Shown: piece after piece, positions 4,434 to 4,769 of the stretch
How positions within the stretch are numbered: the first letter of the stretch is position 1
How the letters are laid out: each line of letters begins with the position of its first letter
Source: a virus
Taxonomy: Duplodnaviria > Heunggongvirae > Uroviricota > Caudoviricetes
Reading direction: 5' to 3' (one strand)
Virus record (IMG/VR): IMGVR_UViG_2563366883_000006
DNA length: 5,076 nucleotides
The notes under the pieces: generated by a model
The model's database searches: none
Told to the model about the DNA's origin: nothing
What the model saw: only the letters and a program-made list of their open reading frames with translations
Translations under genes and position numbers: made by a program

Positions 4434-4434
4434 A

Positions 4435-4548
4435 TCACCACCAACGGATTGCCCAGACCAGAACAGCAATTGCCACAATACGAATGGCAAAAGCTGCCGC
4501 TCTTGTTAAATCCAGACTGGCTGGCGTCTCCACTTCAATGCCTTTCAT
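4435..4548 (-). CDS. Possible 37-aa membrane peptide ORF immediately upstream of Rz (below the ORF-track size cutoff)
   Basis: ATG at 4548..4546, stop TGA at 4437..4435, one nt before the Rz ATG. Translation [37 protein letters not shown] has a C-terminal hydrophobic helix followed by RWW. A weak GAGG lies about 10 nt upstream. It may be non-coding. Confidence 0.25.
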
Positions 4549-4639
4549 AATGGACAACCTCAGAAAGAATCTTTTATACTTCCTCACAGGGAAAGCACCT
4601 CCCTCACCATAATTTCTCCCTTGCCTTACTCAAGGTCAG

Positions 4640-4690
4640 AAAACACAAAACCCCGCTTGCTGCCAACAAACGGGGTTTTTACTTTTATTC
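4640..4690. terminator. Bidirectional intrinsic-terminator-like hairpin between endolysin and Rz
   Basis: Stem AAAACCCCG (4647-4655) pairs with CGGGGTTTT (4671-4679) around a 15-nt loop. T-runs follow on the plus strand (TTTTTACTTTTATT) and on the minus-strand transcript (UUUUGUGUUUUC). Confidence 0.5.
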
Positions 4691-4769
4691 ACTTAGGTTT
4701 TGCCAGTTCACAGGACTTCGTGTTATCCGCCCGCGTTGACCAACGGCATTTTTCAGCAAAATATTCTGC

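Follow-up and report, generated by a model that had tools for sequence, protein, structure and literature searches.

Textbook accounts of phage lysis are modelled on the S-R-Rz/Rz1 cassettes of lambdoid phages, which in Shiga toxin (Stx) phages also govern toxin release. What, then, is to be made of a cassette in which the endolysin gene R and the spanin gene Rz are pushed apart by several hundred nucleotides? Such a cassette is found in IMG/VR record IMGVR_UViG_2563366883_000006 (Duplodnaviria; Heunggongvirae; Uroviricota; Caudoviricetes), a 5,076-nt stretch of DNA, hereafter the window, that is 100% identical to a lambdoid prophage segment of Escherichia coli strain EC2. Its lysis genes lie on the minus strand, and the spacer between R and Rz takes up 336 nt (4769-4434). 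An earlier note on this DNA had singled out the spacer as unexpected, on the premise that R and Rz normally abut or overlap, and had marked within it a bidirectional terminator and a 37-codon membrane open reading frame (ORF). The premise is supported by the K-12 prophage Qin, where rrrQ and rzpQ overlap by 4 nt, and compared with the simplest cassette the spacer is thus additional DNA. Four readings were offered: an inserted mini-moron, a remnant of gene replacement, an uncharacterized small membrane peptide or lysis regulator, or a terminator that makes Rz/Rz1 dependent on Q. The comparative analysis presented here suggests, at a probability of roughly 60%, that the spacer is not leftover DNA but serves the late (lysis) operon as a compact and conserved expression module, the best explanation of the whole being a lysis-operon module that carries the gene for an accessory lysis membrane protein.

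A search of 5426 complete E. coli genomes found the window-type spacer in 666 of them (~12%, with at least 80% of a 601-nt query covered), and its carriers include O157:H7 prophages and inducible Stx phages. Together with the purifying selection on the small ORF described below, this frequency means that the features of the spacer are not due to chance. A scan of viral contigs recovered 80 loci, which fall into two clades. Clade A, the type of the window, has the lysozyme gene upstream and Rz downstream, and clade B is a phiP27-like cassette, with an M15 endolysin gene and a 93-aa ORF upstream and the gene for a 60-aa lipoprotein downstream, the latter listed as an o-spanin (Kongari 2018). The content of the spacer differs among relatives, as would be expected of the variable insert suspected earlier.

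The small ORF is a real gene under strong purifying selection at the protein level. The 37-codon frame reported earlier was readily recovered at 4548-4435, its TGA (4437-4435) being followed by a single T and then by the Rz ATG. Its product, WP_000675931.1, is also encoded, with identical sequence, by O157:H7 prophages whose DNA is 91.5% identical over the 601-nt query. When the window is compared with clade B over codons 14-50, the proportion of synonymous differences (pS) is 0.67 and that of nonsynonymous differences (pN) is 0.054, giving a pN/pS of 0.08, with values above 1 in the other two frames. Variable columns number 7, 0, and 25 at the first, second, and third codon positions, respectively, and the substitutions that separate the clades in the hydrophobic segment are swaps among I, V, L, and A.

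The gene probably starts at GTG 4587 rather than at ATG 4548, and would thus encode 50 rather than 37 aa. The frame is open back to the GTG, which adds MRKYKRFFLRLSI to the N-terminus; the same codon is ATG in five loci, with both clades represented, and a GGGAGG or GGAG Shine-Dalgarno (SD) sequence lies 9-10 nt upstream of the long start in both clades. A 60-aa paralogue, found in E. coli strains (C9, OkiPb), phage PhiR5_2, and prophages of E. marmotae and Salmonella, begins with ATG at the homologous codon (MRKYKRILLRLTMKNGLE...) and differs from the window by synonymous and conservative changes. Moreover, Salmonella members, and metagenomic ones of only ~40% identity, retain the motif of the extension, M-x-x-Y-[KR]-[KR]-x-[FL]-x-[LM]-R-[LI]-[ST]-M. 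The PHROG 4493 profile matches the long form with an E-value of 1.4e-24 (residues 1-50 on profile positions 1-54 of 56) and the short form with 5.5e-16, and PHROGs 1115 and 3246 are weaker matches of the long form. The first annotation of EDL933 had in fact included the 50-aa form as AAG56189.1 ("unknown protein encoded within prophage CP-933O"), its gene lying at 1903736-1903888 of AE005174.2. The paralogues also conserve Met14, inside the frame, along with its GAGG SD sequence, and an internal Met with an SD sequence is also kept in a second, unrelated-looking family at the site, PHROG 6632 (VFNFSKLIREIRVM-AEKLSTWKF...). It is plausible, from this pattern of conservation, that two products of 50 and 37 aa are made from one frame.

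The small protein is predicted to be a single-pass inner-membrane protein with a C-terminal transmembrane (TM) helix. Residues 1-13 carry a net charge of +5 and are amphipathic (hydrophobic moment 0.84), residues 14-29 are acidic, and the best 19-residue Kyte-Doolittle window spans residues 29-47 with a score of 2.1. AlphaFold2 places a helix at residues 4-14, a low-confidence or disordered linker at 15-22, and a second helix at 23-49, with a predicted local distance difference test (pLDDT) score of ~90 over residues 31-50. The TM helix lies at the extreme C-terminus, and the chain ends in RWW with nothing beyond. By the positive-inside rule, the long form should adopt an N-in topology and expose almost nothing to the periplasm.

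Upstream of this gene lies a hairpin with the layout of an intrinsic terminator. On the gene strand, the stem-loop that had been noted at 4647-4679 forms 15 pairs (6 of them G-C) at -21.5 kcal/mol (z -4.6, with none of 200 shuffles as good) and is followed by the tail GTGTTTTCTG, giving the G+C-rich stem-loop and U-run of such terminators. The plus-strand version has 9+3 pairs at -14.2 kcal/mol (z -3.5, one of 200 shuffles as good; tail TACTTTTATT), as three G.U pairs of the gene strand become A.C mismatches, and the terminator scan called the hairpin on the gene strand only. The description "bidirectional" therefore suits the T-runs, which are present on both sides, but not the structure, which favors the sense strand and so fits a role of the hairpin in the sense transcript. 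Across ten distinct hairpin variants, 90.8% of cells stay paired and the folds range from -16 to -24 kcal/mol; pair 17-31, just above the invariant base, is variously UG, GC, or AU. A homologous hairpin lies 54-60 nt upstream of the long-form start (~95-100 nt from the internal ATG) in clade A, clade B, and Salmonella, and mosaic joints flank it: in clade B, four different upstream sequences are joined immediately 5' of the hairpin, and past the window-type R the sequence diverges ~25 nt 3' of it. The hairpin is part of the module: its structure is preserved upstream of the small ORF in clades A and B as well as in Salmonella. A scan of the window with the covariance models of Rfam 15 (E up to 1) returned only a sub-threshold rimP-leader match, which lies on the terminator and is caused by it (24.8 bits against a gathering score of 47 bits; E 0.8).

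No promoter-like site with at least 9/12 matches was found on the sense (minus) strand in 3900-5076, and thus none in the spacer. Because there is no such promoter, the small gene and Rz/Rz1 would depend on read-through of the hairpin. In lambdoid late operons the polymerase that reads through is Q-modified and comes from pR', and read-through by this polymerase is the most likely means by which the small gene and Rz/Rz1 are transcribed. A terminator that makes Rz/Rz1 dependent on Q, as proposed in the earlier note, is accordingly a candidate with which both the terminator-like hairpin and the lack of a sense promoter are consistent.

Between the hairpin and the gene lies a short leader, the SD sequence of which (GGGAGA) is found thirty nt past the hairpin and precedes an 8-codon upstream ORF (uORF). 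The uORF stop overlaps the GTG start of the small gene (GTGA). In all 67 clade A loci, among 96 loci in all, this uORF is intact as M[GV]REV[LF][SP]L-stop, and in a Salmonella prophage it reads MCREVYSL-stop ahead of the paralogue. Two E. coli paralogue loci (L088 and L111) are without the uORF segment, and the same SD sequence stands directly before their ATG. At its other end, the small ORF has as its last codons TGG TGG TGA (4443-4435), which form the near-consensus SD sequence of Rz, GGTGGTGA; the next gene therefore takes its ribosome-binding site from the small gene. None of the 96 loci departs from the junction sequence TGGTGGTGAnATG, regardless of whether Rz or the clade B lipoprotein gene comes next. 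On its sequence, the region reads as a translational relay from the uORF to the small protein and on to Rz. A conserved mRNA structure over the leader and start region was not supported (z +1.18).

Table 1. Features of the R-Rz spacer and of the adjoining lysis genes in the window.
Feature	Position	Strand	Basis and remarks
Small membrane-protein gene, long form (50 aa)	4435..4587	-	Probable start GTG 4587; SD2 GGGAGG 4603-4598; PHROG 4493
Putative short form (37 aa)	4435..4548	-	Internal ATG 4548; SD3 GAGG 4561-4558; PGAP WP_000675931.1
Leader	4584..4620	-	SD1 GGGAGA 4620-4615 and 8-codon uORF, ATG 4610 to TGA 4586-4584 (MVREVLSL-stop)
Terminator-like hairpin, AAAACCCCG...CGGGGTTTT	4647..4679	-	Fold and terminator scan; T-runs on both sides
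Non-coding stretch, R stop to hairpin	4680..4769	-	Travels with R in many Stx phages
Antisense promoter-like site, TGGACA-18-TATACT	4551..4580	+	10/12 match; in the first 13 codons of the small ORF
Second antisense-oriented promoter-like site, TTGACC-18-AATATT	4736-4765	+	Just after the R stop; points into the 3' end of R
Endolysin R, 3' part (R21-type lysozyme)	4770..5076	-	Pfam Phage_lysozyme, E 6e-12; stop TAA 4772-4770
Rz (i-spanin)	3966..4433	-	Pfam Phage_lysis, E 3e-50; PHROG 13; ATG 4433-4431
Rz1 (o-spanin lipoprotein), inside Rz	4028..4213	-	Lipobox LVVSAC and proline-rich mature part

The company kept by the gene points to lysis. The family (PHROG 4493, with paralogues 1115/3246) is narrow, comprising 34 clusters in a profile search of 1.84 billion representatives, and it is abundant in the Enterobacteriaceae, the exact protein occurring on at least 1000 contigs; its hosts are prophages of E. 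coli, Shigella, Citrobacter, and Salmonella. The neighbors of the gene in E. coli, Salmonella, and Citrobacter genomes are always the same, a lysozyme gene on one side and a Phage_lysis (Rz) gene on the other. In relatives, the stretch from the hairpin to Rz holds one to four small single-pass ORFs, which belong to at least three uncharacterized families (PHROG 4493/1115/3246, PHROG 4906, and PHROG 6632); Pfam, NCBIfam, and PADLOC searches with the small protein, its paralogue, and the neighboring small ORFs gave no match. A distant, GC-rich metagenomic phage contig (L113) is particularly informative. Here, an array directly after the capsid gene comprises a hairpin with a 51-aa PHROG 4493 member, a hairpin with a 52-aa PHROG 4493 member and a 59-aa holin (PHROG 920), and finally a hairpin with a 51-aa ORF and a 32-aa PHROG 6632 member ending VRWW-stop, after which comes the lysozyme gene. 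A single 48-nt repeat accounts for all three hairpins, with one copy ahead of each unit. Since the small-protein families stay with holin and endolysin genes in this contig despite the different gene order, a role in lysis is favored over that of a lysogen-expressed moron. The small gene is thus conserved and strongly selected, yet it is usually annotated 13 codons short and has never been studied: a full-text literature search found no mention of the peptide, the hairpin sequence, or the accessions WP_000675931, AAG56189, and Q8X4B6, and the locus was not found, by sequence or EDL933 coordinates, in the supplements of Tree 2014, Huecker 2017, and Neuhaus 2017.

Several relatives deserve a remark of their own. 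Metagenomic contig L112 (325-737) has two tandem family paralogues of 59 and 46 aa, both ending AAIRWW-stop. A Salmonella prophage (L093, 2724-2813) carries a 29-aa hydrophobic ORF, MICFVAAFMLACDGRSGWGWFLLVGLIVM, upstream of the conserved hairpin module, its ATG overlapping the lysozyme stop (ATGA). Finally, a 45-aa TM peptide, VFNFSKLIREIRVMAEKLSTWKF...RWW, of an E. coli prophage (L090, 1788-1925) bears the PGAP name "HAD family hydrolase", which is almost certainly an annotation error.

Several other explanations of the spacer have to be weighed against a lysis module. The possibility that it is a remnant of gene replacement can be set aside, as the whole module (hairpin, leader, uORF, and ORF) is conserved across E. 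coli and Salmonella prophages that have different lysozyme genes, and this cross-genus conservation, together with purifying selection, rules it out. A moron, taken in the broad sense, is a more substantial rival: the peptide would be expressed in the lysogen and would act not in lysis but for the host or prophage, for example by excluding superinfecting phages or by modulating a host membrane protein. Such a history would suit an insert relative to Qin, absent from close relatives and wedged between two late-operon genes, the G+C content of which is lower (0.43-0.46 in the small gene) than that of its flanks (0.52-0.56). It would also suit a site of variable, mosaic content with joints at the hairpin, and a gene that is very common in prophages of pathogenic E. 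coli. However, of the three hallmarks of lambdoid morons (Juhala et al. 2000, as cited in PMC4104026), only presence or absence between otherwise adjacent genes is seen here; the small gene has no sigma-70 promoter of its own, and the terminator lies upstream rather than downstream of it. Its stop is, moreover, fused to the Rz start such that the gene feeds Rz translation, and it remains beside holin and endolysin genes even where the gene order differs. A moron is therefore rather unlikely, and the mini-moron of the earlier note fits poorly; the small membrane peptide or lysis regulator proposed alongside it is the best supported reading, given protein-level selection and the association with lysis genes in distant phages, with the amendment that the ORF probably has 50 codons rather than 37.

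Two further rivals place the function in RNA. In a type I toxin-antitoxin-like arrangement, the peptide would be a membrane toxin, and an antisense RNA of ~100 nt, running from the promoter-like site at 4551-4580 to the hairpin (~4688), would mask the long-form leader and SD sequence. The peptide is indeed hydrophobic and shorter than 60 aa at either length, with a TM helix; the plus-strand site matches at 10/12 and has a hairpin with a T-run ~70-100 nt downstream; and the promoter block hardly differs between clade A and clade B and has 9/12 matches in Salmonella. The ldr, ibs, and zor loci are repeated, and the tandem arrays of hairpin and small TM ORF resemble them. Yet no sense promoter for a toxin mRNA was found, the hairpin is the weaker on the strand that would need it, the ORF is fused to Rz translation inside a late operon, and there is no Rfam match. 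The antisense site falls below threshold in L088 and is absent in L113, and its general presence in these cassettes is thus not supported; its hexamers fall on conserved codons (KYK, LSI), and its function as a promoter is, on the sequence, doubtful. This arrangement is accordingly quite improbable. It is likewise improbable that the hairpin is the 3' end of a small RNA (sRNA) derived from the R 3' untranslated region, or a stabilizer of the S-R message, with the small ORF a mere ribosome-delivery leader for Rz. The 130 nt from the R stop to the hairpin accompany R, conserved, in many Stx phages and are in part shared with Salmonella (~65-70% for 4680..4769), A-rich sequence precedes the hairpin, the hairpin favors the sense strand, and the WW-stop codons double as the Rz SD sequence. 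Against this, the pN/pS of 0.08 and the conservative changes in the TM segment indicate that the peptide sequence itself is selected, and in clade B the hairpin stands directly after a different gene, without the 130-nt stretch. The spacer also gave no Rfam covariance-model match to the known prophage sRNAs AgvB, AsxR, Esr41, STnc100, Sok, and DicF, and the sRNAs of enterohemorrhagic and enteropathogenic E. coli prophages (AgvB, AsxR, EcOnc, Pas, and StxS) all lie in the interval from pR' to the holin gene.

A number of observations also weigh against a lysis module with an accessory membrane protein. In codons 1-13, pS is 0.25 versus 0.67 for the rest, although on few sites, and some nucleotide-level constraint could therefore overlap the coding constraint; its source could be the internal ribosome-binding site or an antisense element or promoter. 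Similarly, the C-terminal RWW could be conserved solely because its codons encode the downstream SD sequence. The hairpins of L113 have no good T-tracts, and it may thus be wrong to take termination as what the hairpin does in general. Many lambdoid phages can do without the gene, both K-12 Qin and phiP27 being examples, and the PHROG 6632 ORF upstream of Rz in the Stx2a phage Stx2_14040 (L003, 2740-2798) has an in-frame TAG (ST-stop-KF); the same ORF is intact (STWKF) in an Stx1a phage (L110) and an E. coli prophage (L090). Finally, no homology to a holin, antiholin, releasin, or other named family was found in Pfam, NCBIfam, or the PHROG holins, and no records of expression, termination, or phenotype for any member were found in the sources searched.

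If the spacer is nevertheless a lysis module, its operation can be sketched as follows. A terminator-type hairpin, set after the 3' untranslated stretch of the endolysin gene, would be followed by the short SD/uORF leader and then by the gene for the single-pass inner-membrane protein. Only Q-modified polymerase from pR' would pass through the hairpin to reach the small gene and Rz/Rz1. Translation would be coupled twice, at the overlap of the uORF stop with the GTG and again at TGG TGG TGA, which would act as the Rz ribosome-binding site. The protein would most likely be made in its long form (GTG 4587), with the short form (ATG 4548) perhaps also made. In the inner membrane, we infer, the protein may act as an accessory lysis factor that tunes holin triggering or the endolysin/spanin steps, and two forms differing in N-terminal charge could tune lysis as in dual-start holins. 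It is tempting to go further and suggest that PHROGs 4493/1115/3246, 6632, and 4906 make up a new class of tiny single-pass lysis regulators, carried in mobile mini-cassettes of hairpin, leader, and dual-start ORF, whose two forms oppose each other (antiholin- versus holin-like, or gating a signal-arrest-release (SAR) endolysin or the spanins). This larger proposal is tentative and less likely than not, but if true, such a class would be an unrecognized layer of control in the pinholin/SAR-endolysin lysis of Stx and other lambdoid phages.

In its presumed mode of action, the module comes closest to two kinds of lysis-cassette gene, those for accessory membrane proteins and the dual-start holin/antiholin genes, and it is a member of none of their families. 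Dual-start holins (lambda S105/S107 and phage 21 S68/S71) are likewise small inner-membrane proteins of the lysis cassette with two in-frame starts, each with its own SD sequence, and the longer form likewise has more N-terminal positive charge. The small protein has, however, no sequence or Pfam kinship with them and no Pfam, NCBIfam, or PHROG holin match; it has one C-terminal TM helix where holins have two or three TM domains, its extension is 13 residues (+5) rather than 2-3, both of its starts are putative, and the window-type cassette already has a class II holin. P2 LysA and T4 RI are non-essential membrane proteins of the lysis cassette that are thought to tune timing. The same is thought of P1 LydB, LydC, and LydD (PMC9025707). 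All of these lie, like the small gene, beside endolysin or spanin genes, but they share no sequence kinship with its product, which is much smaller.

Other comparisons are more distant. The Mu releasin gp25 (DUF2730) is membrane-tethered and encoded near a SAR endolysin gene and spanin genes, and the endolysin of the window is presumably also SAR-type. At 99 aa, gp25 has an N-terminal TM domain (N-out, C-in) and a 73-aa anionic cytoplasmic domain (PMC9239132), unlike the 50-aa small protein with its C-terminal TM helix, and the clade B gene is paired with a non-SAR M15 endolysin; the architecture of the small protein and the lack of a Pfam DUF2730 match rule out a releasin. The phiKT disruptin gp28, also encoded in a lysis cassette, is a helical peptide of about 50 aa that is both cationic and amphipathic, but it is without a TM segment and replaces the spanins (bioRxiv 10.1101/515445), whereas the window has intact Rz/Rz1 and the C-terminal helix of the small peptide is strongly hydrophobic; membership is again ruled out by architecture. 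Type I toxins (Hok, Ldr, Ibs, ZorO, and TisB) share the size, the single hydrophobic helix, the tandem paralogues, and a possible antisense promoter and terminator; the small gene differs in having no promoter of its own, in being translationally coupled within a late operon, and in an antisense element that is not conserved in distant members. Nor is the small protein an i-spanin, as its TM helix is C-terminal, it has no periplasmic coiled-coil domain, and a full Rz follows. The same lack of a periplasmic domain and co-occurrence with a full Rz argue against a mini i-spanin for the phiP27-type lipoprotein, which also occurs elsewhere: phage GER2, of clade A, encodes an unannotated homologue (68% identity) of this 60-aa lipoprotein ~700 nt downstream of Rz (L001, 4053-4220), and the lipoprotein is therefore not tied to the spanin position. 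As for phiP27 itself, the i-spanin listed by Kongari et al. 2018 (64 aa, TTG start; L091 3170-3364, phiP27 20348-20542) is encoded inside, and antisense to, a helical ORF of 90 aa (3154-3426, minus strand); with an o-spanin of only 30 mature residues as its partner, this spanin call looks doubtful.

The module lies among the late genes of a lambdoid prophage. In minus-strand order, the endolysin gene (5076 to 4770) and the spacer are followed by Rz with its embedded Rz1, a 74-aa ORF, and the gene for a TonB_C lipoprotein, and then by a YlcI/YnfO gene on the opposite strand, an HNH endonuclease gene, and the genes for the small and large terminase subunits. The ORF within Rz is taken to be Rz1 from its likeness to lambda Rz1. 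PGAP labels the endolysin gene of the identical genome "lysozyme", and in the complete prophage a class II (S21-type) holin gene and a YdfR-family gene lie upstream of it; the N-terminal segment of the full-length lysozyme is R21-like and, we assume, SAR-type. The second antisense-oriented site of Table 1 has a homologue, TTGGCG-18-AATAAT, at the same place in the Salmonella prophage L093 (2853-2824). The 74-aa ORF (3718-3942, minus strand) matches only positions 100-172 of the 291 in the PHROG 2571 profile and may be a truncated remnant of a longer gene. The lipoprotein with a TonB C-terminal domain (3047-3373, minus strand; Pfam TonB_C 1.3e-14; PGAP name "TonB family protein") occupies the place of bor in lambda. 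Finally, an array at 2066-2214, between the HNH endonuclease and terminase small-subunit genes, consists of 2.5 copies of the 23-nt direct repeat GTTAACATTTTCTGAAAAAGCCA along with inverted copies of CAGTTAACATTT, and may represent cos or terminase-binding sites.

If the small protein tunes the timing of lysis or the disruption of the envelope, then burst size, the release of Shiga toxin, and prophage-mediated vesicle and lysis phenotypes would all be affected, and the module would also offer a compact case of uORF-coupled, terminator-gated expression. Even if it has no role in lysis, so widespread a small membrane protein in pathogenic E. coli would still merit a search for its phenotype.

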